Shown: in pieces, positions 1,646 to 41,158 of the stretch | Layout of the letters: every line of letters begins with the position of its first letter | How positions within the stretch are numbered: position 1 is the first letter of the stretch | DNA from: an uncultured Bacillota bacterium | GTDB lineage: Bacteria > Bacillota_I > Bacilli_A > RF39 > UBA660 | Direction of reading: 5' to 3' | Assembly: GCA_946622285.1 (NCBI GenBank) | Contig: CAMOPK010000001.1 | Span: 41,343 to 105,342, forward strand | DNA: 64,000 bases | Program-made: the position numbers and the translations under genes | The notes under the pieces: model-generated | What the model saw: only the letters and a program-made list of their open reading frames with translations | Told to the model about the DNA's origin: nothing | Database searches by the model: none

Positions 1646-2194
1646 TTATTTTTTATAATAATTACTATTATCTATAAACAAATCCTTTTTATTATATTTT
1701 TCTAATGTGTCTATTATTTCATCTTTATATTTAGCATTTATAGAAATAAAACCATTGACAACAATTTTAGGTAATATGCTTATTGTATATTTATTCAAAA
1801 TAATATATTTAATATCTTCCCATTTAACACGAATGTTTTTATCGTCATCAATGTACTCAATTCCATCTTCATTAAACTCAACTATTCTAACTCCTTTAGT
1901 TTTAAGAAGCATTTTTATTCTCTTAATACAAACAAATAGATAAACAATTTGAATCAACAAAATTACAGTCAAAGCACCTGTCATAAACATAAATATTGTC
2001 TCTTTTGTATCAAGATAGAAATAAAAATTAAGCAGTAAGACAAAGAAAACAAAAATATTATAATATATTAAATACTTTGTAAATTGATATGCTTTTCTTC
2101 TTGGATTTTTTTTGAATTTTTTATATCTTGAAACGACATATAAAAATTCATCATAATATTCTTTAGATCCACGTTCTTTAACTTCAAGTCGCAT
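1646..2194 (-). CDS. YcxB-like membrane protein (two TM helices + bacterial PH-like domain)
   Basis: 182 aa; central hydrophobic hairpin (IFVFFVLLLNFYFYL ... LTVILLIQIVYLFVCI) followed by a soluble C-terminal domain. Own promoter TATAAT and RBS GAAAGGA upstream. Stop is 11 nt from the Cys-rich peptide start, so they form an operon. Confidence 0.45.
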   Translation of the reverse strand: MRLEVKERGSKEYYDEFLYVVSRYKKFKKNPRRKAYQFTKYLIYYNIFVFFVLLLNFYFYLDTKETIFMFMTGALTVILLIQIVYLFVCIKRIKMLLKTKGVRIVEFNEDGIEYIDDDKNIRVKWEDIKYIILNKYTISILPKIVVNGFISINAKYKDEIIDTLEKYNKKDLFIDNSNYYKK

Positions 2195-2235
2195 ATTATC
2201 GTCCTTTCACATATAATTATATCACAAAATGACTT

Positions 2236-2260
2236 TAGAAAAAAGAGACAAAAGTCTCTT
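2236..2260 (-). terminator. Rho-independent terminator of the ABC transporter gene (AGAGAC-AAAA-GTCTCT + T-run)
   Basis: 6-bp perfect stem at 2245-2260 directly after the stop at 2261, followed on the minus strand by TTTTTTC. Confidence 0.6.
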
Positions 2261-5200
2261 CTATTCGCTTCTTAAAGCTTCTACTGGATCTTTTTTAGAC
2301 GCTTTCCTTGCAGGTATTAAACCACCAATTAAAGTTAATATAATACTTAATACTACAAGTATAAATGCACTCTTTACGGCTAATGCAGCACTTAAAGGAA
2401 TATTTCCTGTATAGTGATGCAATATAGTATTAATAATCGGAATTAATGTATAAGTTATTGCAATACCAATTAATCCAGATAAAAATCCAATTATGAATGT
2501 TTCAGCATTAAATATTGAAGAAATATTACGTTTAGATGCACCAATACTTCTTAAGATACCAATTTCCTTAGTTCTTTCATAAACTGAAATATAAGTAATA
2601 ATACCAATCATTATTGATGAAACAACAAGTGAAATTGAAACAAAAGCAATTAAAACATAACTTACAGCATTAACAATTGTTTTAACTGAATTCATTAGAA
2701 TACCTGTCGTATCTGAATAATGAATTACCTTATCTTCATTACCTTCTTTTTCCATTTTTTCATTATAACTATCAATAAATTTTAAGAAATCTTCTTTACC
2801 CTCAAAACTTGTAAAATAGAAAGATATATAAGTTGGAATTTCTTTATCTTGATATCCAAGTTTAATTAAATTTGTATTTTGATTTGTTTCACTTCTATTT
2901 GCCATTGCCCCAAAAATACGCATAAGCTCATCTTCAGTAAATTTTAAAGTAAATGCTGATGCAATCTTATTTGAATCAACATTGAATGCATTAGCAAAAC
3001 TTTTACTTAAATTTCCTGTTAATTCACCAACTTTTGTTAAAATTGTTGCTTTCATTTTAGTTTCGGTCATCCCTTGAGCAAGTTTTTCAATTGCTCCAGC
3101 AGCACCAGTAACATAAGATTGATAAACTGTATTTAAAAGATTATTATCAACTTTTGCTGTTGGATTAGATGGATCAGTTGTTAAACTTGGATCAACTCCA
3201 GCATATGTGGAAATGTAGATTTGAAGTAGTGCTTTCAAAAGACCTGAGTATGCCTCTTTAAATGTTGCAGCTGGAATTACATAATTTTTTTCCAAATTAT
3301 TAACGATATTCTTTGCTTCAGCACTATTCATATAATCATTAACAATATTATTAATATCATTCTTGCTAAAATTCCCATCAATGCTATTAAATAGTCCTGT
3401 TTTTAATGTATTTAATCCATTATTAAAGTCTTTTTTTGCAGGAGTAATATCTGTTGTAATTGAATTAGATATTTCACCCATATACCCCTTTGTTTGATTT
3501 TCTAGATCCTTTTGATTAATTTTTACATTAAATGCATTACCAAGTTTTTTCTTATCGATATTTACTAAATCTGCAAATTGTAAATCTAAATTATTCTTTT
3601 TACTATCAAATCTTGTATTTGAGAAAACATCTACTTCTGGATTATCTAATTGTTTTTTTACCATTTCGTTTTTAGAAGCGTTATCAATAATATAATCTAT
3701 TAATGAATTTTGATAATGAACTCCTGGTGTTAAAGCAGAAGATGTAACTCCTGGTTTAGTAGTAACAATTCCAACTATTTTTAAATCAAGGGCTTTATCA
3801 TAAAGACCTTTCATGTATTCATCGTCTTCACTCATATCTTCATAAACTTCATATTTTGTATTATATTTATAAACATCATATGGATTAACCATTTTAAGTT
3901 TAATATTTAATAAGTCTTCATACGTGAATGTTAAAGGTTCATTATGAATATTAGAACTTTCACCTGACATTATTTTGGTAAACATATCAGTTAATTCATC
4001 ATAATCTCTTAAACCTAATGAATAAACAAGCAAATCAGAAATATTACCTTTTTCACTTAAGACAATTATCATTTCATTATATTTTTCTGGCCATCTACCA
4101 GCTAAAACTTCATATTGCTCATCAAGTATTTCTCTACTATCTAACATTTGACTATAAATTGAAGTCATCGATGATAGTGTTCCCATCATATTTGAATTAA
4201 ACATAGAACTAAATAAACTACTAGGATTTAATTTTGCAAGTTTATTTGTTGCATCAATTGTGTAAATCAAAGGTTCAATGCTATACGAATACTTTACATT
4301 TCTTAAGTCTTTTTCAACTTTTGAATAATTGTCTTCTAAATAGTGTTTAAAACTTTTAATATCATTTACTTTGATATTAGAAAACATTGATGTCATATAT
4401 TGTTGTTCTTTAACAACATCTTCATTTACTTCCTCACCATTACCAGATTGCATAGCAAGTAAAGCTCCTGTAACATCAGTTGCTTCTTGCATAATAGAAA
4501 GTGGATAAGAGCTCAAAGTATCTTCTTGAATAGAATCAACATAATTTTGAAATCCTGTTGAAACAGCTAATATCAAAGCAATACCAATGATTCCAATTGA
4601 ACCAGCAAAAGCAACTAAAATTGTTCTTGCTTTTTTAGTCATTAAGTTATTAAAAGAAAGTGATAAAGCGGTCAAAAATGACATACTTGTTTTTTTATCT
4701 TTATTACCAGATCCTTTACTCTTTTTTTCTTTAAAAGGATTAGAATCTGATGTAATTTTACCATCTTTTAAATTGATGATTCTATTTGAATATTTTTCAG
4801 CTAACTCTGGATTATGAGTTACCATTATAACTAATTTATCTTTAGAAATTTTCTTTAATAATTCCATTATTTGAACACTTGTTTCAGAATCAAGTGCTCC
4901 TGTTGGTTCATCAGCAAGTAAAATGTCTGGATTATTAACTAGTGCACGAGCAATTGCAACTCTTTGCATTTGACCACCAGATAATTGGTTTGGTCTTTTA
5001 TACATATGGTCTTCTAAACCGACATCTTTTAATGCCTGTTTAGCTTTCTCAATACCTTCTTTTTTAGAAATACCAGAAAGAGTCAATGCAAGGCGAACAT
5101 TAGAAAGAATAGTTTGATGTGAAATTAAATTATAGCTTTGGAATACAAAACCAATACGATGATTACGATAAGCATCCCAATCTGCATCTTTATATTTCTT

Positions 5201-5407
5201 AGTGCTTATTCCATTAATAATTAAGTCTCCTGAGTCATAATGATCAAGACCACCAATTATATTTAAAAATGTAGTTTTACCTGATCCAGAAGGACCTAAA
5301 ATAGAAGCAAATTCGCATTCACGAAAAGAGACACTGACGTCATCAAGTGCCTTTTGAGTAAACCCTTCTGTTTTATATATTTTTGTAATGTTTTTAATTT
5401 CTAACAT
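2261..5407 (-). CDS. ABC transporter, fused ATP-binding and FtsX-like permease (MacB-type), large extracytoplasmic domain
   Basis: Walker A GPSGSGKTT, signature LSGGQMQRVAIARAL, Walker B ILLADEPTGALD at the N-terminus. C-terminal FtsX-type TM bundle (IGILRSIGASKRNISSIF...). RBS AAGGTGA. Confidence 0.85.
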   Translation of the reverse strand: MLEIKNITKIYKTEGFTQKALDDVSVSFRECEFASILGPSGSGKTTFLNIIGGLDHYDSGDLIINGISTKKYKDADWDAYRNHRIGFVFQSYNLISHQTILSNVRLALTLSGISKKEGIEKAKQALKDVGLEDHMYKRPNQLSGGQMQRVAIARALVNNPDILLADEPTGALDSETSVQIMELLKKISKDKLVIMVTHNPELAEKYSNRIINLKDGKITSDSNPFKEKKSKGSGNKDKKTSMSFLTALSLSFNNLMTKKARTILVAFAGSIGIIGIALILAVSTGFQNYVDSIQEDTLSSYPLSIMQEATDVTGALLAMQSGNGEEVNEDVVKEQQYMTSMFSNIKVNDIKSFKHYLEDNYSKVEKDLRNVKYSYSIEPLIYTIDATNKLAKLNPSSLFSSMFNSNMMGTLSSMTSIYSQMLDSREILDEQYEVLAGRWPEKYNEMIIVLSEKGNISDLLVYSLGLRDYDELTDMFTKIMSGESSNIHNEPLTFTYEDLLNIKLKMVNPYDVYKYNTKYEVYEDMSEDDEYMKGLYDKALDLKIVGIVTTKPGVTSSALTPGVHYQNSLIDYIIDNASKNEMVKKQLDNPEVDVFSNTRFDSKKNNLDLQFADLVNIDKKKLGNAFNVKINQKDLENQTKGYMGEISNSITTDITPAKKDFNNGLNTLKTGLFNSIDGNFSKNDINNIVNDYMNSAEAKNIVNNLEKNYVIPAATFKEAYSGLLKALLQIYISTYAGVDPSLTTDPSNPTAKVDNNLLNTVYQSYVTGAAGAIEKLAQGMTETKMKATILTKVGELTGNLSKSFANAFNVDSNKIASAFTLKFTEDELMRIFGAMANRSETNQNTNLIKLGYQDKEIPTYISFYFTSFEGKEDFLKFIDSYNEKMEKEGNEDKVIHYSDTTGILMNSVKTIVNAVSYVLIAFVSISLVVSSIMIGIITYISVYERTKEIGILRSIGASKRNISSIFNAETFIIGFLSGLIGIAITYTLIPIINTILHHYTGNIPLSAALAVKSAFILVVLSIILTLIGGLIPARKASKKDPVEALRSE

Positions 5408-5469
5408 CTAATCACCTTTTCTTGCCGTTAGTATTATATTATATTTTCTTAAAATTTGATAGATTTTTT

Positions 5470-5931
5470 TTAATAATCTGATGTTCTTTTTTTGTTTAAA
5501 TTTTCATCATCATCAGTAGTTAAGAATTTCATGAAAATTCCTTGAACTAGTGAATAACCAGCATCAAAATGTAAAGGCTTATCACTTTCATTTTGAACTT
5601 TAACAAATATATGTCCCTCATTGTCTTCATTGTTATAATAATCAGCATCAATAACACCTACTTGATTAACTAAACGAATATTATATTTAAAACCAGTAGA
5701 TCCTCTTACTATTAAAAATAAAACTTCATCAGAATTAAAGCATGATTTAACTCCTGTTGGAATTTTAGCAATCTCGCCTGGTTTAATATCTAAATCTTCA
5801 AGTAAGTATATATCATATCCTGCAGCATCTGTTGTTTTTCTTGCAGGCAATTTATAACTATCATAAAACTTCTTATCATCTTTTACTGATTTTGAGAATT
5901 CTTCATAACTAATTTTTTCAAACTTACGCAT
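5470..5931 (-). CDS. dut: dUTP diphosphatase (dUTPase)
   Basis: 153 aa with dUTPase motifs AGYDIYL, RGSTG and GVIDADY. Confidence 0.7.
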   Translation of the reverse strand: MRKFEKISYEEFSKSVKDDKKFYDSYKLPARKTTDAAGYDIYLLEDLDIKPGEIAKIPTGVKSCFNSDEVLFLIVRGSTGFKYNIRLVNQVGVIDADYYNNEDNEGHIFVKVQNESDKPLHFDAGYSLVQGIFMKFLTTDDDENLNKKRTSDY

Positions 5932-5933
5932 TT

Positions 5934-6437
5934 TTATATCTCCTTTGAATAATAATTGACTATAACTTCTGTTCCATCTGGATAAGTATCAGTTGATGTT
6001 TTTAGATATGTTGTAAAGCCATATTTAAAATAAATCATCATATTCTTTACTTCACATGGTTCAACCCCTAAAGTTACTTTTTTATAACCTCTTTTTTTAA
6101 GATCTTCAATCATGAACTTAAATAACTTACTGAAGTATCCTTGGCCTTGATATTCTTCAATTACACGAAACGCTTCTAAATAAGCTGTATCTTTATCGGC
6201 TAAACCATTTCCATTTTGAACATCACTTGTATCAAATATTGCAGTTGTTTCAGCAATTATTTTACCATCTAAGACTCCATGATAAACAACACTTATACCT
6301 TTTTCTACTCTATCAAAAGCATTCTTTTTCCAGGTGATCCAATTATCTTTATCACTAGCTTTATTTATTTCATAATCCCACTTTATTTCCATTTCAGGAA
6401 TAGTCGCGATTTTGCAAATATATTCCATAGGTCTCAC
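5934..6437 (-). CDS. GNAT family N-acetyltransferase
   Basis: 167 aa; acetyl-CoA-binding motif RVIEEYQGQGYFSKLFKFMIEDLKKRGY. Confidence 0.65.
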   Translation of the reverse strand: MRPMEYICKIATIPEMEIKWDYEINKASDKDNWITWKKNAFDRVEKGISVVYHGVLDGKIIAETTAIFDTSDVQNGNGLADKDTAYLEAFRVIEEYQGQGYFSKLFKFMIEDLKKRGYKKVTLGVEPCEVKNMMIYFKYGFTTYLKTSTDTYPDGTEVIVNYYSKEI

Positions 6438-6477
6438 CTTTAGACATTATAACAAAAAAGAAGCAGATTTACTACTT

Positions 6478-8214
6478 CTAACTTAATTTTTTATAATCAA
6501 TTTTACCAATTTTAGTAGTTGGAAGTTTCTCTCTGAATTCATATTCAGCTGGCCACTTATATTTTGGTATGTTACTTTCACAATATTTCTTGATTTCTTT
6601 TTCAACTTCTTTTGTTAACTCAATATCTTTTTTAAGCACAATTACAGCTTTAGGAACTTCCCCTTTTACTTTATGCTTCATTGCAACAACTATTGCTTGA
6701 TCAACATATTTATGTTTACTAATAATACTTTCAAGTTCAAGTGGATAAATATTATATCCATTTGAAATAATCATTCTTTTTAAACGTGATTGATAATGTA
6801 AAACTCCATCTTTACTCATGTAGCCTAGGTCTCCAGTATGAAGCCAAGTCTTGCCATCATAGTGAGTTCTTAAAACTTCTGAAGTTTCCTTTTCCTGATT
6901 AATGTAACCTAACATTACAGATGGGCCTGTTACACATATTTCACCAATTGTTCCAAGTTCTAGTTCAATATCAGTATTTGGTTCAAATATCTTGATAATA
7001 TTATCTGGATTAGGTATACCAATATTATCAATATCTTTAACACTTTCACATGTAGCTGAAATAAATGCAGTTGCTTCAGATAATCCGTATCCTATCTGAA
7101 TATGTGCCAAAGATCCACAATCTCTGAAATAATTAATTGTATTTTCTTTCAATTCTTTAGGTAAATAATCTCCACCACTTAATATTACTTGAACACTCTC
7201 AAAGCTATTTCTTCCAAGTTTCTTATTTTTTATTATATAATTTAACATACTTGGAATAACAGGTAATAGATTAGGTTTTTTATCCTTGATTACCTTATTT
7301 AACTTATGAACATCAATCTTAGGTATTAAAATGCACTTTAATCCTATTGCAAGTGGTACATGAATACAAACACAAAGACCAAATCCATGAAAGATTGGTA
7401 AAGCCGATAAAATAGAATTACCAGCTTTAGCTTCTGGGCAAACAGCTTCACATTGAGCAGCAATTGAATTAAAGCAAAGATTTGAAAGAACAACACCTTT
7501 ATTTTTACCAGTTGTTCCACCGCTATAAATTATTATAGCCGGACTATCTTGACTACGATTGACATGAGTCTCAATTAAAGAAGTATCATTCTTTAAAAAG
7601 TCAATCCATCTAATAACATTGTCATTGTAATGCATGTTCTTGCGATTTTTTAAAGTATACAAAAGTTTCATGATAGCATCCATACTATTACATACTTCAC
7701 ATACTATTAAATGTTTGATTTTTAGATCTTTTACTTTCTCATATGTAACATCAGTTGTAATTAAAATTGTTGAATTTGTTTCCTTCATTGCTTCTTCAAT
7801 CTCAGCTGATGTTGAGATTGGATGGATGATATTACAAATAGCCCCTATTTTATTAACTGCATATATTGTAAATATTGCTTCAGGCATATTAGGCATACAA
7901 ATAGTTACGCATTCATTTTCAACTACTTTTAAATTTTTCAAAGAAATTGCAACTTGATCAATATTTTTAATTAATTCAGTATAACTATATTCGATTCCAA
8001 AATATTCCAAAGCTGAGTTATTTGGATATTTAATACTTGTATCTTTAACAATATCGTACATTGAGCCATTGTAATAACTTAAATGTTCTGGCATACGATC
8101 ATAATATTTTAACCAAGGTTTTTCATCATTTTGTTTAATACTATTTACTTTATTTATTATTTTATTTATATAATCATTTACTATTCCCATATATAAAACC
8201 TTTCTAATAAACAT
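6478..8214 (-). CDS. AMP-dependent synthetase/ligase (acyl-CoA synthetase family)
   Basis: AMP-binding motif IIYSGGTTGKNKGVVLS, GYGLSEA and TGDLGYMSKDGVLHYQSRLKRMI. True start may be the second Met (8190), which has a better RBS. Confidence 0.8.
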   Translation of the reverse strand: MFIRKVLYMGIVNDYINKIINKVNSIKQNDEKPWLKYYDRMPEHLSYYNGSMYDIVKDTSIKYPNNSALEYFGIEYSYTELIKNIDQVAISLKNLKVVENECVTICMPNMPEAIFTIYAVNKIGAICNIIHPISTSAEIEEAMKETNSTILITTDVTYEKVKDLKIKHLIVCEVCNSMDAIMKLLYTLKNRKNMHYNDNVIRWIDFLKNDTSLIETHVNRSQDSPAIIIYSGGTTGKNKGVVLSNLCFNSIAAQCEAVCPEAKAGNSILSALPIFHGFGLCVCIHVPLAIGLKCILIPKIDVHKLNKVIKDKKPNLLPVIPSMLNYIIKNKKLGRNSFESVQVILSGGDYLPKELKENTINYFRDCGSLAHIQIGYGLSEATAFISATCESVKDIDNIGIPNPDNIIKIFEPNTDIELELGTIGEICVTGPSVMLGYINQEKETSEVLRTHYDGKTWLHTGDLGYMSKDGVLHYQSRLKRMIISNGYNIYPLELESIISKHKYVDQAIVVAMKHKVKGEVPKAVIVLKKDIELTKEVEKEIKKYCESNIPKYKWPAEYEFREKLPTTKIGKIDYKKLS

Positions 8215-13854: not shown

Positions 13855-14538
13855 TCATGATTTATCTATGTTATTTTTATCTTTCCTTCTATTTAGTAAC
13901 CAAACTACTAAACTAAGTATATATGTTGCAACATGCATAAATATAAATACAAATACAGTTGCTTTAAAACCACCTCGTGCAAATCCATACCAGTCATATG
14001 CAAAAGGCACTTTGCCATTTTCAATATGAGTAATTATGTTTAACACATAAAATATTGCATATATAAATACAGGTACTAACCCTAAAATAGTGTGCTTAAA
14101 TTTTATTTGGTTGTTTTTTTCAAAAAAGACAAGTGTAATAAAACTTAATACTGGAATTATGAAATGATAAAATAAATTGCTATTTTGAAACATTGAGAAA
14201 AATCCAGTTGGTGCAAATGGAGCTAAATATAAAACTGTTACTAAAAATGTTACTAGAACCCCAATTGTAAACATATATTTCATTATATATAATTCTTTTG
14301 GTATTATTTTTCTTTTATCTTTCATTGTTTTATATTCGAAACAAGCAAACACTAATGATATTAGTCCAATTAATATATTTGAATCAACAGTAAAAAACTT
14401 AAATAGTTGAAGTCCTGATACTTCTAAAACTAGATCATCACTCATAAAATGAAAACCAGCCATCATAAAAATAGTGGCCATAAGAACCAATATAAATATT
14501 ATTATGTTAAAAATGAATGATATTTTTATATTTTTCAT
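13855..14538 (-). CDS. Polytopic membrane protein (Pr6Pr/FAR-17a-like family suspected)
   Basis: 227 aa, 6 TM helices, FTVDSN motif. Confidence 0.35.
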   Translation of the reverse strand: MKNIKISFIFNIIIFILVLMATIFMMAGFHFMSDDLVLEVSGLQLFKFFTVDSNILIGLISLVFACFEYKTMKDKRKIIPKELYIMKYMFTIGVLVTFLVTVLYLAPFAPTGFFSMFQNSNLFYHFIIPVLSFITLVFFEKNNQIKFKHTILGLVPVFIYAIFYVLNIITHIENGKVPFAYDWYGFARGGFKATVFVFIFMHVATYILSLVVWLLNRRKDKNNIDKS

Positions 14539-14621
14539 ATTTTCACCGTACTAATTATAACATAATTATTGCATTTATTAATTTCATTTGTTAAAATATG
14601 TCATAAAAGGTGGGGATTTTT

Positions 14622-29257: not shown

Positions 29258-29294
29258 ACAATAAAAAAATCTATAGAGATAATCTATAGATTTT
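29258..29294 (-). terminator. Terminator of the nrd operon (AAATCTATAG-AGATAAT-CTATAGATTT + T7), overlapping the stop of the last gene
   Basis: 10-bp perfect stem; T-run is the complement of 29261-29270. Confidence 0.55.
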
Positions 29295-30189
29295 TACTAT
29301 TTAAATAGTCAATTACATCAATTGCTGCGATTGTACCATCGTTAGTTGCTGTAGTAAGTTGTCTTACATTTTTAGTACGAACATCACCTGCTACAAAAAT
29401 GCCCTCTAAATTGGTATTCATATCAGTAGATTTGATATAACCATAATCGTCGATATCAATTAGATTTTTAAATATTTTACTTGTCGGAATACGACCAATT
29501 GATAAGAATATTCCATCTAATTTAATATCTTTTTCATTATTTACTTCTATTCCTGAAAAGTTTCCATTTTCATTTAAATATTTTGTAACTTTACTTGATA
29601 AGTTTATTTCGACATTAGATTTTTTACCTATTTCAGCAATATATCTTTCTTCACCAGTTAAGTGATCTAAGTCTTGAATAATTACTACTTTTTTGCACAA
29701 TTCAGATAGCGATAGAGCATTAATCAAAGCAGAGTTTCCACCACCTATAACGCCTACTACTTTATTATTGTAAAAAGCGCCATCGCAGGAAACACAAAAG
29801 TGAATTCCCGATCCGATAAAGTCTTCTTCACCCTCAAGATTTAGTTTACGATATTCACATCCAGTTGCAATAATGATTGATTTAGCTTGATATTCACCTG
29901 AATCAGTAATAACTTTTTTATCTTTTGTTATTTCTAATACTTCTTCAATTGCTATTTCACAACCAAGATTATCAACTTGTTCATATAAATTATTTGCAAG
30001 TTCAGCTCCGCTTATTGCTTTAAATCCTGGATAATTCTCAACAAGTGGAGAGGAAGCTATTTGGCCTCCTATCCCCTCTTTTTCAATCAATAAAACATTT
30101 TTATTAGCTCTTTTTAAATATATTGCTGCAGTTAATCCCGCAGGACCTGCTCCAATTATAATTGTGTCGTACATATTATTTTGACTCAA
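29284..30189 (-). CDS. Thioredoxin-reductase-like flavoprotein lacking the NADPH-binding HRRxxxR motif (FFTR-like, pyridine-nucleotide-independent type suspected)
   Basis: FAD fingerprint IIIGAGPAGLTAAIY, redox CxxC CVSCDG, second GGGNSA. Where E. coli TrxR has HLIHRRDGFRAEK this protein has VIIQDLDHLTGEE. Confidence 0.7.
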   Translation of the reverse strand: MSQNNMYDTIIIGAGPAGLTAAIYLKRANKNVLLIEKEGIGGQIASSPLVENYPGFKAISGAELANNLYEQVDNLGCEIAIEEVLEITKDKKVITDSGEYQAKSIIIATGCEYRKLNLEGEEDFIGSGIHFCVSCDGAFYNNKVVGVIGGGNSALINALSLSELCKKVVIIQDLDHLTGEERYIAEIGKKSNVEINLSSKVTKYLNENGNFSGIEVNNEKDIKLDGIFLSIGRIPTSKIFKNLIDIDDYGYIKSTDMNTNLEGIFVAGDVRTKNVRQLTTATNDGTIAAIDVIDYLNSKNL

Positions 30190-32542
30190 TATATTTCTTT
30201 ATGTTAGAAAGGTTCTTTACTTGTTCTACAGTACCTTTTTTAACAATAACTAATGTTGGTGCTTGAGTAACTCCACATTTCTTTGTAAGTTCTACTTCTT
30301 CTTCAGCATCAATAAATTTATATTTGATTTTTGCTTTATCAAGTAATGTTTTTGCCATTTTACAGTTTGGGCATGTTTTAGTTCCGAAAAGCATTATTCC
30401 ATCTTTTACGTCTTCAACTTTTTCAGTAGTGCAATTAGTTTCGCAAGCGCATTTTTCAACATGATGAGTATGATCTAATTCTTCATATTCAGTTCTGCTA
30501 TCATATTCACTTCGTTTTCCATCATTCCAATTTTTGATTGGACGATAGTATCCTGTTATACGGCTGTATACTTCAGCTTCTTCACCGCATTCTGGACATG
30601 TAAAGTGTTCCCCTGGCATATAGCCATGGTTCTTACATACTGAATATGTAGGTGATATTGTATAGTAAGGTAAACGATAGTTTTCAGCGATTGTTCTAAC
30701 TAATTTAGCTGCTGCTTTCCAATCTGTTAATCTTTCACCTAAGAATGCATGGAATACTGTTCCTGATGTATAAAGTGTTTGTAATTCATCTTGAATATCT
30801 AAAGCTGCAAAGATATCTTTTGTGAAATCTACAGGTAAATGTGATGAATTTGTATAGTATGGTTTTTGGCCTTCTTTTGCTGCTGTTATAATATCAGGAT
30901 ATTTTTCAACATCATGTTTAGCAAAACGATATGTTGTTGATTCTGCTGGAGTTGCTTCTAAGTTATATAGATCTCCATATTCTTCTTGATAATCTGATAA
31001 TTTTTCACGCATGAAGTTTAATACTTCTTTAGCAAATTTTTGTGTCTTTGGACTTGTTAAGTCTTCTCTTAACCATTTAGCATTTAAACCTACTTCATTC
31101 ATACCAATTAAACCAATTGTTGAGAAGTGATTATTAAATGTACCTAAATAACGTTTAGTATATGGATAAAGTCCTTCATCAAGTAATTTTGTAATTACAT
31201 TTCTCTTTACCTTTAAACTACGAGCTGCAATATCCATTAAACGTGTTAAACGCTTGTAAAAATCTTTTTCATCTGTTGCTAAATAAGCAATTCTTGGTAA
31301 GTTGATTGTTACAACTCCAATTGATCCAGTTGATTCGCCACTACCGAAGAAACCACCTGATTTCTTTCTTAATTCTCTTAGGTCTAGTCTTAAACGACAG
31401 CACATACTTCTTACATCACTTGGTTCCATATCACTGTTGATGTAATTTGAAAAGTATGGTGTACCATATTTAGCAGTCATTTCAAATAATAACTTATTGT
31501 TTTCTGTTTCACCCCAATTAAAATCACGAGTAATTGAGTATGTTGGAATTGGATATTGGAATCCACGGCCATTAGCATCTCCTTCAATCATGATTTCGAT
31601 GAATGCTTTATTTACCATATCCATTTCTTTTTGACAGTCTTTATATTTGAAATCCATTTCTTTGCCACCAACGATAGCATTTAATTCAGCTAAGTCATTT
31701 GGTACTGTCCAGTCAAGTGTAATATTAGTGAAAGGTGCTTGAGTTCCCCATCTACTTGGTGTATTAACGCCATAGATGAATGATTGAAGTCCTTGTTTTA
31801 CTTGTTTATAAGTTAAGTTATCAACTTTAACAAAAGGTGCTAGATAAGTATCAAATGATGAGAAAGCTTGTGCTCCAGCCCATTCATTTTGCATAATACC
31901 TAAGAAGTTAACCATTTGATTACAAAGTGTTGATAGGTGCTTTGCTGGTGATGAAGTAATCTTTCCTGGTACTCCACCTAGTCCTTCTTGAATTAATTGT
32001 TTTAAACTCCAACCTGCACAATATCCACTAAGCATTGATAAGTCATGGATATGAATATCAGCATTACGATGTGCATTTGCAATTTCTTCATCATATACTT
32101 CACTTAACCAATAATTTGCAGTGATTGCACCAGAGTTACTTAAAATTAATCCTCCGATTGAATATGTAACTGTTGAGTTTTCTTTTACTCTCCAGTCAGT
32201 TACATTAATATAACTATTAACAACATCACGATAGTTTAAAATCGCACCTTGCATGTTACGCATTTTTTCATGTTGTTTACGATACAAAATGTATGTTTTA
32301 GCAACTTCTGCATAACCAGCATTTGATAATACACTTTCTACACTATCTTGAATATCTTCTACTCTGATTGCGTTATTTTTGATGTTAGGTTGAAAATTAG
32401 CAGTTACTTTTAAAGCAAGTAGATCTAAAACATCATCATTGTATTCAGTTTCAGTTGCTTCAAATGCTCTTCTAATTGCACTTTTAATTCTCTCTATATC
32501 AAATTCAACAGTTTTTCCTTCTCTTGTTTTTACTTTATACAT
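30176..32542 (-). CDS. nrdD: Anaerobic ribonucleoside-triphosphate reductase NrdD (class III) with N-terminal ATP-cone and fused C-terminal glutaredoxin/NrdH-like domain
   Basis: ATP-cone MYKVKTREGKTVEFDIERIKSAI; ADIHIHDL; thiyl loop MCCRLRL; Zn site CKNHG...CPEC; glycyl-radical motif SRITGYYR; then ~100 extra residues with CACETNC and a TKTCPNCKMAK CPxC redoxin fold. Confidence 0.9.
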   Translation of the reverse strand: MYKVKTREGKTVEFDIERIKSAIRRAFEATETEYNDDVLDLLALKVTANFQPNIKNNAIRVEDIQDSVESVLSNAGYAEVAKTYILYRKQHEKMRNMQGAILNYRDVVNSYINVTDWRVKENSTVTYSIGGLILSNSGAITANYWLSEVYDEEIANAHRNADIHIHDLSMLSGYCAGWSLKQLIQEGLGGVPGKITSSPAKHLSTLCNQMVNFLGIMQNEWAGAQAFSSFDTYLAPFVKVDNLTYKQVKQGLQSFIYGVNTPSRWGTQAPFTNITLDWTVPNDLAELNAIVGGKEMDFKYKDCQKEMDMVNKAFIEIMIEGDANGRGFQYPIPTYSITRDFNWGETENNKLLFEMTAKYGTPYFSNYINSDMEPSDVRSMCCRLRLDLRELRKKSGGFFGSGESTGSIGVVTINLPRIAYLATDEKDFYKRLTRLMDIAARSLKVKRNVITKLLDEGLYPYTKRYLGTFNNHFSTIGLIGMNEVGLNAKWLREDLTSPKTQKFAKEVLNFMREKLSDYQEEYGDLYNLEATPAESTTYRFAKHDVEKYPDIITAAKEGQKPYYTNSSHLPVDFTKDIFAALDIQDELQTLYTSGTVFHAFLGERLTDWKAAAKLVRTIAENYRLPYYTISPTYSVCKNHGYMPGEHFTCPECGEEAEVYSRITGYYRPIKNWNDGKRSEYDSRTEYEELDHTHHVEKCACETNCTTEKVEDVKDGIMLFGTKTCPNCKMAKTLLDKAKIKYKFIDAEEEVELTKKCGVTQAPTLVIVKKGTVEQVKNLSNIKKYIESK

Positions 32543-32570: not shown

Positions 32571-33254
32571 CTATAAACCACGTATTTCTACGTTCTTTTC
32601 GTTTTTAAATATAGCTTTTATTTTTTCTAGCTCATCTGCTTCAAATCCAATTAAATTCTTATCAAGTACATCATCGCTCATTTTAAAGTTTTGAATATAA
32701 TACTTGCTTCCTTTAACTAGTTTATAAATTGATTTTACATCATCAATTGTATGATAATTCTTTATGAGTGTTGTCCTGAATTCATAATCAACACTACCAT
32801 TTTTTAATATTTTTATACTCTCTTTAAGAGCTTTTTCGTTGACTTTGCATTTAGCAACGATTTCATATTTATCAAGACTATTTTTTATATCCATCGCCAC
32901 ATAATCAACTAATTTATTGCTTACAAGTTCTTTTAATACTTTTGGATTGCTTCCATTTGTATCTAATTTAACTTTAAGTCCAATTGCTTTAACCTTTTTA
33001 ATGAAATTTATTAATTCTGGTTGAACTGTAGGTTCACCTCCAGATATTACAATTCCATCTAAAACATTTTTTCTAAGATTCAAGTAATCTAATATTTCTT
33101 CTTCAGAAAAGTTGCCTTTTTCTTTCTTGTGCAAAATTAATGAACTATTTTGACAATAAGAACATCTAAAATTGCATCCTCTTGTAAAAATAATGCAAGC
33201 AACATGTCCTGGATAATCTAGTAGAGTTAATTTATCAAATCCATCAATTATCAT
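32571..33254 (-). CDS. nrdG: Anaerobic RNR activating protein NrdG (radical SAM)
   Basis: CNFRCSYCQN radical-SAM cluster motif; operon context. Confidence 0.85.
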   Translation of the reverse strand: MIIDGFDKLTLLDYPGHVACIIFTRGCNFRCSYCQNSSLILHKKEKGNFSEEEILDYLNLRKNVLDGIVISGGEPTVQPELINFIKKVKAIGLKVKLDTNGSNPKVLKELVSNKLVDYVAMDIKNSLDKYEIVAKCKVNEKALKESIKILKNGSVDYEFRTTLIKNYHTIDDVKSIYKLVKGSKYYIQNFKMSDDVLDKNLIGFEADELEKIKAIFKNEKNVEIRGL

Positions 33255-35169
33255 AATTTACCTCCACATATTTTATTTTACTTGCTTCTAAGTCTGATAA
33301 AAGTTTAGTAAATTTTTTAAATTCAGCATTTTTTAGATTGATTGTACAAATTGCTGAAGTTAAACTTTGATATTTTGCTTGAAGTGTTAGTTGTGTGTCA
33401 AAACCTAATTTTGATTGATTAATAAATTTAGATACTGGTTCATAACAACTTTTATTGATTGTTTTCTCACTTCCAAACACACTTTTATCGATACGAATGA
33501 AACTATTTATTATTGATTGATCATATATTTCAGCAATCATGAAGTTTAATTTTAAATCATTACTTAAAGCTTCACATTTTTTATTCATTGCTTTGATAAC
33601 TTTAGTAAGCATTTCAAAATCTTCATTATTTAGTTTATTATCTGCTTTCTTATTTAATAAGAAGACTGCTTCAACAAGCCCAACAAATCCAATTACAAAT
33701 GCTCCATTACGCAATATTTTTCTAACTTTTTGGCCATCATCAAGTTTTTCAGAGTCATAAAGTAAACCTTTATTAAATAGAACATTATAATTTTCTTTAA
33801 TTTTACCTGATTGAACTTCAAATCTTTGCATAAGTGCATTTTTTGCAAGCTCCATGACATTATCAAGTTCCTTTAAAAAATCATTTATGCAGGTATTTTT
33901 CAAAGCAAGTCTGGCCAAATTAATGGTTGAAATCGAATTAATTGTTCTTCCTCTTGATGTTTCAGTTCCATTTATATTATTAAATACACATATTCCATTT
34001 GAGAAATAATTAACATCATGATTTTTACCAAATACAAAGTGAATTTTATTTGATTTAGTTTTTTCAAACAAAACCTTATTTATTTCTTCGTCATTATTAA
34101 TATATATATTAGTAATTACCTTTGATTTCGGTTTTAATGCTTTGAAATAATTGATAATTATCATTTTACTTATGAATGAGTCATCATTATCAAGGCATAT
34201 TACAATATTTTTCTTTAAAATTGTATCAATAATATCAAATAATCTTTCGAAGTTATCTTTTATTAACCTATTCAGTTTTTTAATTGTTTGATTGTAAGTA
34301 ATTTCAAAAATATTTTTTAATACGCCATTTTTTAACTCAGTATTAAGAAAATCTTTATCTTCAATATTTGTTAATGGTTTTACTAATTCTTCAACTTTAT
34401 TTCTATCTATATATATATCTAAACCATTTATACTTAAGTTATTCCAAAATTCTTTTAGAAATATATCTTTAAAATCATTTAATACTCTTGTTGATAAAAT
34501 TCTATCAAAGTTCATTAAAGTTTGTTCTTGATATTGATCTGATTCTACTAGAATAATTGTATGAATTATCTCAGTCATAAAACTTTGAACTGTTTTTAAA
34601 TCTTCAAAATCAACATTCAAGTTACTTGAACAAGGAGTTCCAAATGTATAATTATCTAATCCATTTATTGCAATTATTCCTTCTTCAATGCCTTTTTCAA
34701 CTTTGCCTTCAATTAAGTAAGCTGTTGCAAATTCCTTTGAAATTACTTCAGCAAAGTTAGATATGAGTTCATTTGGTTTTTGATCATTTGCTTCATTTGC
34801 CAAATAGCCAACTTTTTCCATGGCTTTAACAAATTTATGTTGTGGTCTTATTCCAAATACATCCCTTGACTTTGCTCTACGTAAGCGATAATCACTAAAT
34901 GAATTATAAACATTTATGTACCCTGCTTTTTTCAAAGATTCTTCAATGATATTTTGAATGTCTTCAACATTGATAGTTTTTCTTGTTTTGTAGTTTTCAG
35001 CAATTGTTTTTAAAACTAACTCATAAACTTTGTTTACATCTTTAACATTTGGGTCTTCATAGACGCTTCCAAAGCCTTTTCCTATAGCAATTGCAATTTT
35101 TGTACCATTGAATGCTACTCTTTGACCAGTTCTCTTAACAACTACGAGATCTTTAAATTCTTCTTTCAT
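33244..35169 (-). CDS. NrdD-like protein with ATP-cone but without glycyl-radical motif, Zn-ribbon or thiyl Cys pair (probable pseudo-enzyme / regulatory paralogue)
   Basis: ATP-cone VVKRTGQRVAFNGTKIAIAIG...VEDIQNIIEESLKKAGY. EGIIAINGLDNY aligns with NrdD ADIHIHDLSMLSGY, and TINSISTINLARLALKN...LKEL aligns with NrdD IGVVTINLPRIAYLAT. C-terminus ends ...KYVEVNYDN with no RxxGY and no CxxC. Overlaps nrdG by 11 nt. Confidence 0.6.
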   Translation of the reverse strand: MKEEFKDLVVVKRTGQRVAFNGTKIAIAIGKGFGSVYEDPNVKDVNKVYELVLKTIAENYKTRKTINVEDIQNIIEESLKKAGYINVYNSFSDYRLRRAKSRDVFGIRPQHKFVKAMEKVGYLANEANDQKPNELISNFAEVISKEFATAYLIEGKVEKGIEEGIIAINGLDNYTFGTPCSSNLNVDFEDLKTVQSFMTEIIHTIILVESDQYQEQTLMNFDRILSTRVLNDFKDIFLKEFWNNLSINGLDIYIDRNKVEELVKPLTNIEDKDFLNTELKNGVLKNIFEITYNQTIKKLNRLIKDNFERLFDIIDTILKKNIVICLDNDDSFISKMIIINYFKALKPKSKVITNIYINNDEEINKVLFEKTKSNKIHFVFGKNHDVNYFSNGICVFNNINGTETSRGRTINSISTINLARLALKNTCINDFLKELDNVMELAKNALMQRFEVQSGKIKENYNVLFNKGLLYDSEKLDDGQKVRKILRNGAFVIGFVGLVEAVFLLNKKADNKLNNEDFEMLTKVIKAMNKKCEALSNDLKLNFMIAEIYDQSIINSFIRIDKSVFGSEKTINKSCYEPVSKFINQSKLGFDTQLTLQAKYQSLTSAICTINLKNAEFKKFTKLLSDLEASKIKYVEVNYDN

Positions 35170-35306
35170 AAACTTTCGCCTTTCTATTTTTGGCTACTGT
35201 AATCATATTACCAAATTGGAGAAAAAATAGCAATATTTTTTTGTAAATTTTTTTACATTTTTTTAAAATTATTTTTTTGATTTTTTTGATTTTTTTCTAA
35301 AAAAAA

Positions 35307-35332
35307 CATTTTGTATTTTTTACACAAAATGT
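35307..35332. promoter_or_regulatory. Inverted repeat ACATTTTGT-N9-ACAAAATGT in the nrd operon leader (candidate repressor box; NrdR-box-like ACA...TGT half-sites)
   Basis: Seen in sequence between the hypothetical gene terminator and the putative nrd promoter (-35 TTGCTA / TGgTAATAT at ~35232-35204). A third copy of ACAAAATGT lies at 35371-35379. Confidence 0.25.
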
Positions 35333-35354: not shown

Positions 35355-35385
35355 TTAATATAAAAAACGACAAAATGTCGTTTTT
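35355..35385 (-). terminator. Rho-independent terminator (ACGACA-AAA-TGTCGT + T-run) after the 35400..36347 gene
   Basis: 6-bp stem at 35367-35382; minus strand continues TTTTTTAT. Confidence 0.5.
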
Positions 35386-35399
35386 TTGTTTTTTATTTT

Positions 35400-36347
35400 T
35401 TATTCGACAGTAAAATATCCAAAATTGATTTCAGACGTTGGATTTTCAACAGTTCCTGTGAAATATCTAACACGGAACTTTTCATCTCCTGTAACTTTTA
35501 CTGAAACAGAGTTTGCATGATAATACCAAGAACCATTTTCTTTATAAAAATCAGCTATTGGTTCATCTTCTCCATTATATAGTTTATATTGAAGTATTGT
35601 ATTATCTTTTGTCAATGTGTTAGAAGCATATGTATAACTATTAGCATTTTGCTTAAAGTCATATCCATTTATATTTTCTTTATCAATTTTAAAATAATTT
35701 GTAACAACATTTACGTAGTTGGTATATTTTCTTATAACTAATGTTCTTGTTGCTTCTTTTGAAACTGTATTGTTATTATCGACAACTGAATATCTTACAT
35801 AAAAAATATTATCGACATTAGGTGATAAATATTTAGTAACTACTTTTAATTTAGTTCTTGTTTCATCTAAAACATAATTTCCTTTTGAATCTTTTTCATT
35901 ATATGTATAGTAAACAAGATCAACTTTATAGTTATCACTACTAGTTACTGTATTTGTATTAAAACCGATAACTTCATTACCTATTTCATCATATATTTTA
36001 TAGTTTAATAGATTAGTAATGTCACTTTCATTTTCTTGGCATAAAGAGTTACTTTCACTATTAGCAGCTCCATCATTAATGCATCCAGAGACTTTACCTT
36101 TAAAGTCATATTCCATTACTTCTTCTTCATTTATTCTAACATAAGTAGTATCAGGAGATATTTGAACACGTGCTCCATATGTTTCAGCCGCTTCATTCAA
36201 TTCTGTTTTAACATTTTTCTTATATTTATCAAGAGCCAACTTACGATTAGATATCATTGCAAGTAAAGCTACAACTATTGTTAGAAACAAAATCATTACG
36301 GCATATAATATTCCACTTATGGCAAATCCCTTATTATTCAGTTTCAT
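35400..36347 (-). CDS. Hypothetical membrane-anchored secreted protein
   Basis: 315 aa; N-terminal signal anchor MKLNNKGFAISGILYAVMILFL; no recognised domain. Confidence 0.4.
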   Translation of the reverse strand: MKLNNKGFAISGILYAVMILFLTIVVALLAMISNRKLALDKYKKNVKTELNEAAETYGARVQISPDTTYVRINEEEVMEYDFKGKVSGCINDGAANSESNSLCQENESDITNLLNYKIYDEIGNEVIGFNTNTVTSSDNYKVDLVYYTYNEKDSKGNYVLDETRTKLKVVTKYLSPNVDNIFYVRYSVVDNNNTVSKEATRTLVIRKYTNYVNVVTNYFKIDKENINGYDFKQNANSYTYASNTLTKDNTILQYKLYNGEDEPIADFYKENGSWYYHANSVSVKVTGDEKFRVRYFTGTVENPTSEINFGYFTVE

Positions 36348-40612: not shown

Positions 40613-41158
40613 TTACAATAACATTTCTTTTATAGCTAACCAATCTTTAGCTCTTTCAATACCCATTTTTTCTAATTCTTCATCACTTATTGCTTCATTA
40701 TGATATGCAGTAAAAAGAATTTTTCTTTTGGCATTTTTTAAATTATCAGTTCTATCATCTATTTTAATATCAGTTTGTAATAATGCTTTATTAGATAAAA
40801 ATATATATTGACTTGGTTTAATAAATGGAAATTCTTTTACTAAAAATTCATGTTTTTGTTTTAATATATATCCACATTCTTCTGGTATTTCACGATATAT
40901 ATATGATGTTCCTATATATAAATCATATTTCTTAGACAATTCTTCTATTACTTCTTTTGCATTTGGTGCTATATGGCAATATTCATAAATGTTTTTATCT
41001 TTAAACCATTTAAAGAATGCTTCTTTATCTGGAAGAATATCTTGCATATAAAAATTCTTGAAATCACTTTCCACATAGTTTGTTCCCATATATTCATTCA
41101 AGAGGGCTATAAAGCCCCCTTGAACCATTACATCATCCATATCAATCATTAATGTCAT
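40613..41158 (-). CDS. 5'(3')-deoxyribonucleotidase (NT5C/YorS-like HAD phosphatase)
   Basis: HAD motif I IDMDDVMV and C-terminal KIDDRTDNL, typical of the NT5C family. Start ATG overlaps the upstream stop (ATGA). Confidence 0.7.
   Translation of the reverse strand: MTLMIDMDDVMVQGGFIALLNEYMGTNYVESDFKNFYMQDILPDKEAFFKWFKDKNIYEYCHIAPNAKEVIEELSKKYDLYIGTSYIYREIPEECGYILKQKHEFLVKEFPFIKPSQYIFLSNKALLQTDIKIDDRTDNLKNAKRKILFTAYHNEAISDEELEKMGIERAKDWLAIKEMLL

Follow-up and report, generated by a model that had tools for sequence, protein, structure and literature searches.

We analyzed a 64,000-nucleotide stretch of DNA from an uncultured Bacillota bacterium (contig CAMOPK010000001.1; here called the window), in which the genes for an anaerobic, class III ribonucleotide reductase (RNR) are preceded by an open reading frame (ORF) for a 641-amino-acid (641-aa) protein of the NrdD family. 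This protein, encoded at positions 33244..35169 on the minus strand, has retained the fold and the ATP-cone of NrdD. Judged by its residues, it is catalytically dead, as it lacks every element required for radical chemistry and for the binding of nucleoside triphosphates in the active site. Its gene, just ahead of those for the activase NrdG and for a catalytic NrdD that ends in a glutaredoxin domain (NrdD-Grx, also termed NrdD2 below), is under purifying selection and has been kept at the head of the class III RNR operon across a large clade of low-GC gut Bacilli. The finger-loop motif marks the NrdD subclass, MCCR for the thioredoxin type and MGCR for the formate type (PMC9669993). Our best reading is that the 641-aa protein is a pseudoenzyme, an old MGCR NrdD that was stripped of catalysis and of substrate and effector handling and that kept its cone and connector. 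Because a dead NrdD with an intact ATP-cone is conserved under selection across a group of gut bacteria, it probably serves the anaerobic RNR system as an undescribed helper that senses nucleotides.

Fold and lost catalytic elements

We compared the 641-aa protein with domain, profile, and structure databases. Pfam recognized an ATP-cone (PF03477) at residues 9 to 99, with 43.9 bits against a gathering cut-off of 25.8, and the NRDD domain (PF13597) with 111.8 bits, over profile positions 241 to 506 of 562 only. The protein scored below every NCBIfam equivalog cut-off for NrdD (the best match was PRK07111, with 181.7 bits versus 764; TIGR02487 gave 83.4 bits versus 326). Neither Pfam nor NCBIfam contains a model specific to the dead-NrdD family, whose genes are annotated at source as "hypothetical protein" or "anaerobic ribonucleoside-triphosphate reductase". 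A profile of the family aligned end to end with the NrdD of Prevotella copri (PcNrdD; residues 8 to 679 of 743; E value of 1e-54). The AlphaFold2 (AF2) model of the 641-aa protein (pLDDT of 88.2 and pTM of 0.78, with low pLDDT at residues 104 to 130) had its best Foldseek matches in the Protein Data Bank with the NrdDs of P. copri, Streptococcus thermophilus, T4, and Thermotoga maritima (E values down to 1e-29; TM score of 0.67 to 0.78 for the core). Pfam, profile, and Foldseek thus assign the protein to the family with the NrdD-type 10-stranded alpha/beta barrel, and not to an unrelated family, an outcome that the sequence-only reading had considered. The model shows a predicted fold like that of NrdD, composed of an ATP-cone (aa 9 to 99; 34873..35145, minus strand), which contains K12, R13, Y94, and R98; a connector (aa 100 to 131; 34777..34872, minus strand), in which column statistics identified R102, H111, K112, F113, and E118 as invariant; and a degenerate 10-stranded barrel (aa 132 to 641; 33247..34776, minus strand), which was delimited by profile and column statistics and ends at the last barrel strand.

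We then compared the residues of 68 members of the dead family with those of 13 sequences from the nearest active (MGCR) sister clade. The roles of the residues, including those of the NxN flap, were taken from the study of PcNrdD (PMC11226230). The thiyl-radical position is occupied by Cys in 13/13 active sequences (Y-M-G-C-R) and never in the dead family, where N, D, or T is found in 66/68 members; the window protein has Asn, within a finger-loop remnant recognized by column statistics (aa 386 to 408; 33946..34014, minus strand). The beta-A Cys, present in 13/13 active sisters, is replaced by S, H, or D. The HIHD triphosphate motif (HxHD) of the active sisters has become Y/F-I-(H/E/N)-(D/N) in the dead family and IAING in the window, and the ATPAE (TPAE) phosphate loop, the Arg and Gln of loop 2, and the s-site Asn, all found in the active sisters, are gone. 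The 10 residues of the NxN flap (RENANVDGDG in the active sisters) are deleted in 68/68 dead members, just after the connector. The active sisters continue into a Zn ribbon and a glycyl-radical domain (GRD; RxxGY), whereas all dead members stop at the last barrel strand, the C terminus of the 641-aa protein corresponding to PcNrdD residue 679 of 743. Two cysteines of the window copy lie close to the catalytic positions, C180 immediately before that of the beta-A Cys and C394 three residues past that of the thiyl radical, and the family conserves neither of them. The sequence-only reading had pointed out the missing GRD, Zn ribbon, and thiyl loop; the comparison confirmed these and added the other losses. 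Since none of the functional features that define NrdD is present in the 641-aa protein, it should not be annotated as a reductase.

The cone and connector evolved differently from the barrel: mean pairwise identity within the dead family is 0.61 in the cone, about 0.5 (0.51) in the connector, and 0.25 to 0.30 in much of the barrel. In the cone and connector, K12, R13, G15, Q16, R17, F20, K24, Y94, R95, R98, and R102 are invariant. K12, R13, Y94, R98, and R102 (68/68 each) align to Lys7, Arg8, Tyr83, Arg87, and Arg91 of PcNrdD, which contact its two (d)ATP molecules (PMC11226230). All of these cone ligands are among the 43 invariant columns of the family, so that the ATP-cone, with its Pfam score, is as intact as had been claimed. 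The connector residues H111, K112, F113, and E118 are common to the active sister clade too, and N417, R420, G407, D561, and G566 are kept in the barrel. By these alignments, the a-site is the only nucleotide site of NrdD that survives in the 641-aa protein, the c-site and the s-site being lost.

Selection, descent, and distribution of dead NrdDs

A protein search yielded 544 relatives, of which we examined the best 120 (clusters at 90% identity) for length and end. Nearly all of these had 613 to 685 aa and a common C-terminal end, down to about 33 to 35% identity. When 1.84 billion representatives at 50% identity were scanned with a hidden Markov model, 369 matched at an E value of ≤1e-30, and ∼85 of these were full-length representatives without any catalytic motif. 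The ratio of nonsynonymous to synonymous substitutions (dN/dS), calculated for pairs of loci with unsaturated dS, was 0.09 to 0.25 for the dead gene, 0.06 to 0.2 for nrdG, and 0.01 to 0.07 for the catalytic nrdD, and the dead protein evolves ∼5 times faster than NrdD2 (mean distance of 1.15 versus 0.22). The sequence-only reading had named two possible artifacts, a frameshift hiding a downstream glycyl-radical domain and a recent pseudogene. Both are excluded by the conserved length and end point, by the low dN/dS, and by nrdG, which starts 11 nucleotides (nt) before the stop codon of the dead gene, so that no downstream frame can provide a GRD; homologs down to about 33% identity end alike and share the losses. 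We noted one contig (L082, 3339-5291) with a stop codon in the cone of the dead gene. It differs there from L083 by 8 substitutions within 60 nt, the NrdD-Grx proteins of the two being identical, and the stop codon is probably a sequencing error rather than a natural loss, because the coverage is 4x and the changes are clustered.

In a neighbor-joining (NJ) tree, the dead family formed one clade, and its sister group consisted of active MGCR NrdDs from similar organisms. The sequence-only reading had described the protein as a paralog that aligns to the NrdD encoded two genes downstream. The similarity exists, in the cone (BLASTP E value of 6e-7) and in the TINL strand (4e-4), but it is weak, and a close kinship did not hold: profiles, BLASTP, and the NJ tree place the neighbor in the MCCR subclass and indicate that the dead NrdD derives from the formate-type (MGCR) lineage. 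In place of the MCCR cassette, the near-basal member L038 has an active NrdD of the MGCR type and a short NrdG as its neighbors. In the simplest history, an MGCR nrdD would have been duplicated, one copy would have lost catalysis, and this dead copy would have been kept throughout, the catalytic partner and the activase being replaced later by a cassette of nrdG2, nrdD(MCCR)-grx, and trxB. An origin from phages was rejected, as no relatives were found in 2.9 million viral contigs.

We scanned one genome per GTDB species and found relatives in 256 species, from which 80 loci were kept. The hosts are low-GC metagenome-assembled genomes from gut and rumen, labeled Bacilli, Erysipelotrichaceae, Tenericutes, "Mycoplasma sp. 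CAG:776," "Clostridium sp. CAG:1193," and Candidatus Avacholeplasma, which we take to belong mostly to the GTDB order RF39 and its neighbors. The order dead gene, nrdG, nrdD-grx was found in 65/80 loci, followed by trxB wherever the contig reaches (52 loci), in line with the co-occurrence that the sequence-only reading had proposed to profile; among the remaining loci, 1 has an MGCR NrdD and 14 are active NrdDs or have insufficient flank. Within the window clade, every locus with sufficient flank has the dead gene inside the nrd operon. In 67/67 loci, the dead gene and nrdG either overlap (mostly by 4 nt) or are separated by no more than 7 nt. Conversely, anchoring on the catalytic NrdD-Grx recovered the same upstream gene (650 to 657 aa, ATP-cone plus NRDD), a test that is limited to one lineage because the 120 best NrdD2 homologs are all at least 78% identical and belong to that lineage. 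One locus (L017) contains a second NrdG-like ORF (13935-14606, minus strand), 44% identical to the window NrdG and located directly after trxB on the opposite strand.

The scan of representatives revealed further dead NrdDs in other arrangements. Thirteen clusters labeled Acholeplasmataceae (90% identity clusters; 892 to 931 aa; 54 to 79% identical; proteins P0354 and P0378-P0389) combine an ATP-cone, a dead NrdD barrel, and a short NrdG in a single chain. Their finger loop, Y-G-A-T-R-N-R, has no Cys, HIHD is replaced by F/Y-I-K-E, and RRITGY is replaced by a conserved RRINDL; the CxxxCxxC motif of the activase is intact. P0354 was found with identical sequence in three independent assemblies, directly after an active MCCR NrdD-Grx, and the fusion loci (L086, 5602-7950 and 8001-10715; L087; L088) have no separate nrdG nearby. 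Divergent dead NrdDs of 680 to 722 aa, which have intact cone motifs and neither thiyl Cys nor Gly loop, stand alone, remote from nrd genes, with genes for the glycine cleavage system, MscL, PrsA/HAD, or pta/UvrD as neighbors (L090, 6001-8091; L093/L094, 5001-7127; L095, 5001-7043; L096, 1113-3200; L091, 6001-8169). Linkage to the nrd operon is therefore not universal. A third arrangement of the same association was found in L092, where a 713-aa dead NrdD (5001-7142, plus strand) is divergent from an MCCR nrdD-nrdG pair (1874-4638, minus strand) whose NrdD has 698 aa and the Gly loop RVVGF. An NJ tree that includes all of these forms clusters the dead NrdDs together; it is crude, without bootstrap, and may be affected by long-branch attraction.

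The nearest active relatives show a peculiarity of their own, as their NrdD is split. A core of ∼757 aa with the MGCR Cys and the Zn ribbon ends just before the Gly loop, and an ORF of ∼50 aa, a few nucleotides downstream, carries VGEGVxFxRIRRITGYLVGT..RFNNAKK and is followed by a short NrdG; 10/11 such loci show this arrangement (L051, 7995-10274, 10280-10453, and 10440-11009; also L057, L062, L065, L066, L072, L073, and L075-L077). Split nrdD genes are known from phages (PMC3653736), and we found no description of this bacterial form in the literature. Such a "genes-in-pieces" identity is refuted at the sequence level for the window operon, which has neither the micro-ORF nor the catalytic Cys residues. 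Several relatives of the active clade (P0338, P0340, P0355, P0364, and others) have 900 to 1,116 aa, 150 to 350 aa over normal, and no match to an MGCR regular expression; their finger loop may be interrupted by an intein or by some other insertion.

The nrd operon of the window

The four genes of the operon are tightly packed on the minus strand in the order dead nrdD, nrdG, nrdD-grx, and trxB. The dead gene, with an ATG start and with the stop codon included in its coordinates, was identified from the ORF list, Pfam, and the AF2 model. It is preceded by GAAAGG, which we read as its ribosome-binding site. The nrdG gene (32571..33254, minus strand) encodes a 227-aa activase (NCBIfam TIGR02495, NrdG2; 215.5 bits versus a cut-off of 131), and its Shine-Dalgarno sequence, GGAGG, sits within the final codons of the 641-aa ORF. 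The ORF list and the junction sequence bore out the 641-aa ORF and its 11-nt overlap with nrdG as first described. The catalytic gene (30176..32542, minus strand) encodes an MCCR-type NrdD of 788 aa, which scored 1,146.7 bits on PRK08270 (cut-off, 548) and 644 bits across the full NRDD profile, with a glutaredoxin domain at the C terminus. It has all the hallmarks of an active enzyme: its own ATP-cone, the MCCRLRL finger loop, the CKNHG...CPEC Zn ribbon, and the SRITGYYR Gly loop. The last gene, trxB (29284..30189, minus strand), encodes a thioredoxin-reductase-like flavoprotein (TIGR01292, 294.8 bits, below the cut-off of 343; Pyr_redox_2, 155.6 bits).

The cone of the window NrdD starts with VKTREG (32518-32533, residues 4 to 8), and most of 54 orthologs have V-r-K-R-e-G. 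Among these, the window NrdD alone has Thr in place of the cone Lys, which contacts a nucleotide phosphate in other cones. The idea that the dead copy substitutes for a defective cone in the catalytic NrdD was rejected, since the cone is canonical in most of the 54 orthologs.

Upstream of the dead gene, we tentatively assign a promoter-like site (TTGCTA-17 nt-TAATAT, with TG 5' of the -10 hexamer; 35205..35233, minus strand), which was read from the sequence and is absent from the list of the consensus scan. A perfect 16-bp palindrome, TGTAAAAAAATTTACA (35242..35257, minus strand), also read from the sequence, lies just 5' of the putative -35 hexamer and, to judge by consensus sites, may be an operator of the Crp/Fnr or Rex type. 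A terminator scan identified a terminator-like hairpin of the preceding gene (35362..35386, minus strand), which is predicted to set the nrd operon apart from that gene. The promoter-like site and this hairpin agree with the position at the head of the operon given in the sequence-only reading. Between the hairpin and the palindrome, we observed an AT-rich hairpin with a 9-bp stem and a T run (35306-35332); the palindrome and this hairpin may constitute an operator and a leader element.

The genes flanking the operon code for unrelated housekeeping or surface proteins, and the G+C content of the DNA is 24 to 33%. Just upstream, a gene at 35400-36347 (minus strand) encodes a 315-aa protein that has a hydrophobic, pilin-like N terminus (MKLNNKGFAISGILYAVMILFL...) and that matched nothing in Pfam. 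Some 5 kb ahead of the operon and co-oriented with it, a gene at 40613-41158 (minus strand) encodes an NT5C-type 5'(3')-deoxyribonucleotidase (Pfam, 62.8 bits), another enzyme of the dNTP pool close to the nrd genes. A regular-expression scan found no NrdR, a weak negative since it was limited to the 64-kb window.

Possible roles of the dead NrdD

We infer that the 641-aa protein would bind ATP or dATP via its cone and relay the signal as a non-catalytic accessory subunit. A regulatory or scaffolding function, which the sequence-only reading had suggested, is thus plausible. Two partners can be envisaged, and the one that we rank first, as a tentative proposal in its general form too, is the activase. 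The dead NrdD would form a complex with NrdG, both being made from one translationally coupled message, and the ATP/dATP ratio would, through this complex, govern glycyl-radical delivery to the catalytic NrdD-Grx. We propose NrdG because of the invariable abutment and coupling of the dead gene to nrdG and because of the recurrent fusion of related dead NrdDs to NrdG; this genomic evidence points at least as much to the activase as to NrdD2. A barrel-to-barrel heterodimer with NrdD2 is a less likely partnership, since the two proteins belong to different subclasses and are 25% identical. In a wider form of the proposal, which we regard as possible but rather doubtful, ATP-cone-bearing dead NrdDs would be widespread, undescribed regulatory subunits that tether or gate the radical-SAM activase NrdG and act as an ATP/dATP switch on glycyl-radical installation; in the Acholeplasmataceae fusions, the RRINDL loop would be a pseudo-substrate for the fused activase.

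Several points weigh against a partnership with NrdG. The type of activase varied over the history of the family (L038 and the fusions have a short NrdG, the main clade the NrdG2 type), and as the type of NrdD changed too, the dead protein outlived a swap of both putative partners. The GRD, which is the sole known target of NrdG within NrdD, is missing from the sequence of the 641-aa protein. As most orthologs of the catalytic NrdD already carry a canonical cone, the need for an extra one is not obvious. Overlapping genes are commonplace in compact genomes, so that coupling need not reflect a complex, and the distant dead NrdDs stand alone, remote from nrd genes. Mirror-tree partial correlations did not discriminate between the partners (0.39 for NrdG and 0.40 for NrdD2). 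Finally, eukaryotic NrdD::NrdG fusions are presumably active (PMC3019208), so that the bacterial fusions may be inherited and would then provide weaker Rosetta-stone evidence.

A close second is a dATP-driven, cone-to-cone association with the catalytic NrdD, in which the cones of a dead dimer would form dATP-dependent hetero-oligomers with the cone-bearing enzyme and sharpen or buffer its inhibition by dATP, NrdG being uninvolved. We consider this a possibility to be taken seriously, albeit not a probable one. Strong constraint is confined to the cone and connector (by the identities given above), which suggests contacts mediated by cones, and NrdD cones do self-associate: dATP induces tetramers of PcNrdD via cone helices (PMC11226230) and cone dimers of the S. 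thermophilus NrdD (PMC12662201). Moreover, the catalytic NrdD that accompanies the dead one bears a cone whether it is of the MGCR type (L038) or of the MCCR type (elsewhere), and a generic cone contact fits this better than co-evolved contacts through the barrel or the activase would. However, the cones of the dead protein and of NrdD2 are only ∼30% identical, NrdD2 has a canonical cone of its own in most orthologs, NrdD2 dimers could self-associate unaided, and the model leaves both the invariable abutment to nrdG and the NrdG fusions unexplained. The stand-alone dead relatives speak against it as well. These same relatives, encoded beside unrelated genes with their cone motifs intact, favor a third and somewhat unlikely explanation, namely, a neofunctionalized nucleotide sensor or binder with an output beyond RNR (for example, a dATP/ATP buffer or another regulator) and a merely historical position in the operon. 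The invariance of N417, R420, D561, and G566 without a catalytic context, suggesting a retained pocket or a constraint on the fold, is compatible with such a sensor, but the gene of the window clade never leaves the nrd operon where enough flank is available, and the context points to no other domain or partner.

We judge it very improbable that the ORF is a decaying relic or is kept solely for translational coupling to nrdG, its protein being functionless. The fast evolution relative to NrdD2, the Shine-Dalgarno sequence of nrdG within the 3' end of the dead ORF, and the strain-level contig with a stop codon in the cone would all be expected of such an ORF. The idea is largely refuted by the selection analysis, as the dN/dS values given above hold across the whole ORF, and it is at odds with the conservation of length and end point to about 33% identity, with the 43 invariant columns, and with the confident AF2 model; as for the stop codon, the contig that carries it has the features of a sequencing error. 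It is harder still to believe that the protein remains catalytic, with a glycyl-radical peptide from a separate ORF completing it in trans. The nearest active relatives, with their core and RIRRITGY micro-ORF, provide a precedent, but the window operon has no Gly-loop micro-ORF, and nrdG overlaps the stop codon of the dead gene. A donated radical would also have nothing to act on, since the thiyl Cys, the beta-A Cys, HxHD, TPAE, and the NxN flap are missing in every member of the family.

Among characterized proteins, the MGCR NrdDs with an ATP-cone (P. copri, 8p23; S. thermophilus, 9d3x) are closest to the 641-aa protein, which shares with them the domain order and the fold, the cone ligands of the two-nucleotide type, and the conserved Asn of the TINL strand; it differs from them by all the losses described above, from the thiyl Cys to the GRD. 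Pseudoenzyme partners as such are already known. In yeast, Rnr4 is a dead paralog that partners with Rnr2 (class Ia beta). In trypanosomatids, the AdoMetDC prozyme and a dead DHS paralog partner with the active enzymes (PMC5201418, PMC3663545). Like these proteins, the dead NrdD has lost catalytic residues, is retained by selection, and is encoded alongside an active enzyme; this co-occurrence is constant in the window clade and does not extend to the distant stand-alone dead NrdDs. In contrast, Rnr4, the prozyme, and the DHS paralog are eukaryotic and act in demonstrated complexes, whereas any complex of the dead NrdD is a proposal, its active neighbor belongs to the other NrdD subclass, and its retained functional module is an allosteric domain, not an interface. 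NrdR, an ATP-cone and Zn-ribbon repressor of nrd genes, offers another likeness, an ATP-cone serving as ATP/dATP sensor on a non-reductase protein tied to the RNR system. NrdR lacks a barrel and binds DNA through its Zn ribbon, while the dead NrdD has a dead barrel of ∼540 aa and no recognizable DNA-binding domain. GrcA/YfiD is a spare part for a glycyl-radical enzyme. The beta and gamma subunits of benzylsuccinate synthase are accessory subunits of another enzyme of this kind (PMC12590467). All are non-catalytic modulators of radical installation or use, as proposed for the dead NrdD, but they are unrelated to it in sequence and fold, and none has a nucleotide-sensing domain. Lastly, the NrdD-NrdG fusions of eukaryotes (PMC3019208), together with those of Acholeplasmataceae, support a physical link in that an NrdD-type chain and an activase can work as one polypeptide. 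In the window, however, the two proteins are encoded by separate, overlapping genes, and the presumed activity of the eukaryotic fusions contrasts with the RRINDL motif and the missing finger-loop Cys of the Acholeplasmataceae proteins.

Our searches of the full-text literature, of which our coverage was incomplete, turned up nothing on a dead, inactive, or pseudo-NrdD, on the RNR of RF39, or on a bacterial dead-NrdD::NrdG fusion, which agrees with the statement in the sequence-only reading that no such component of class III RNR was known to it. On our best reading, what is new is thus a pseudoenzyme member of the NrdD family that has been kept as an accessory component. A practical consequence concerns metabolic reconstructions of RF39-like bacteria, in which labels such as those cited above would lead to the miscounting of a second RNR. 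The allosteric on/off control of class III RNR has only recently been explained structurally, for cones on the catalytic chain, and the dead NrdD provides a natural case of separation of function, in which an ATP-cone is left without an active site of its own. If the proposed role is correct, class III RNR would have in the dead NrdD its first pseudoenzyme component, and, should NrdG be gated by it, glycyl-radical installation would be a new control point of these enzymes, beyond substrate binding in the catalytic subunit.

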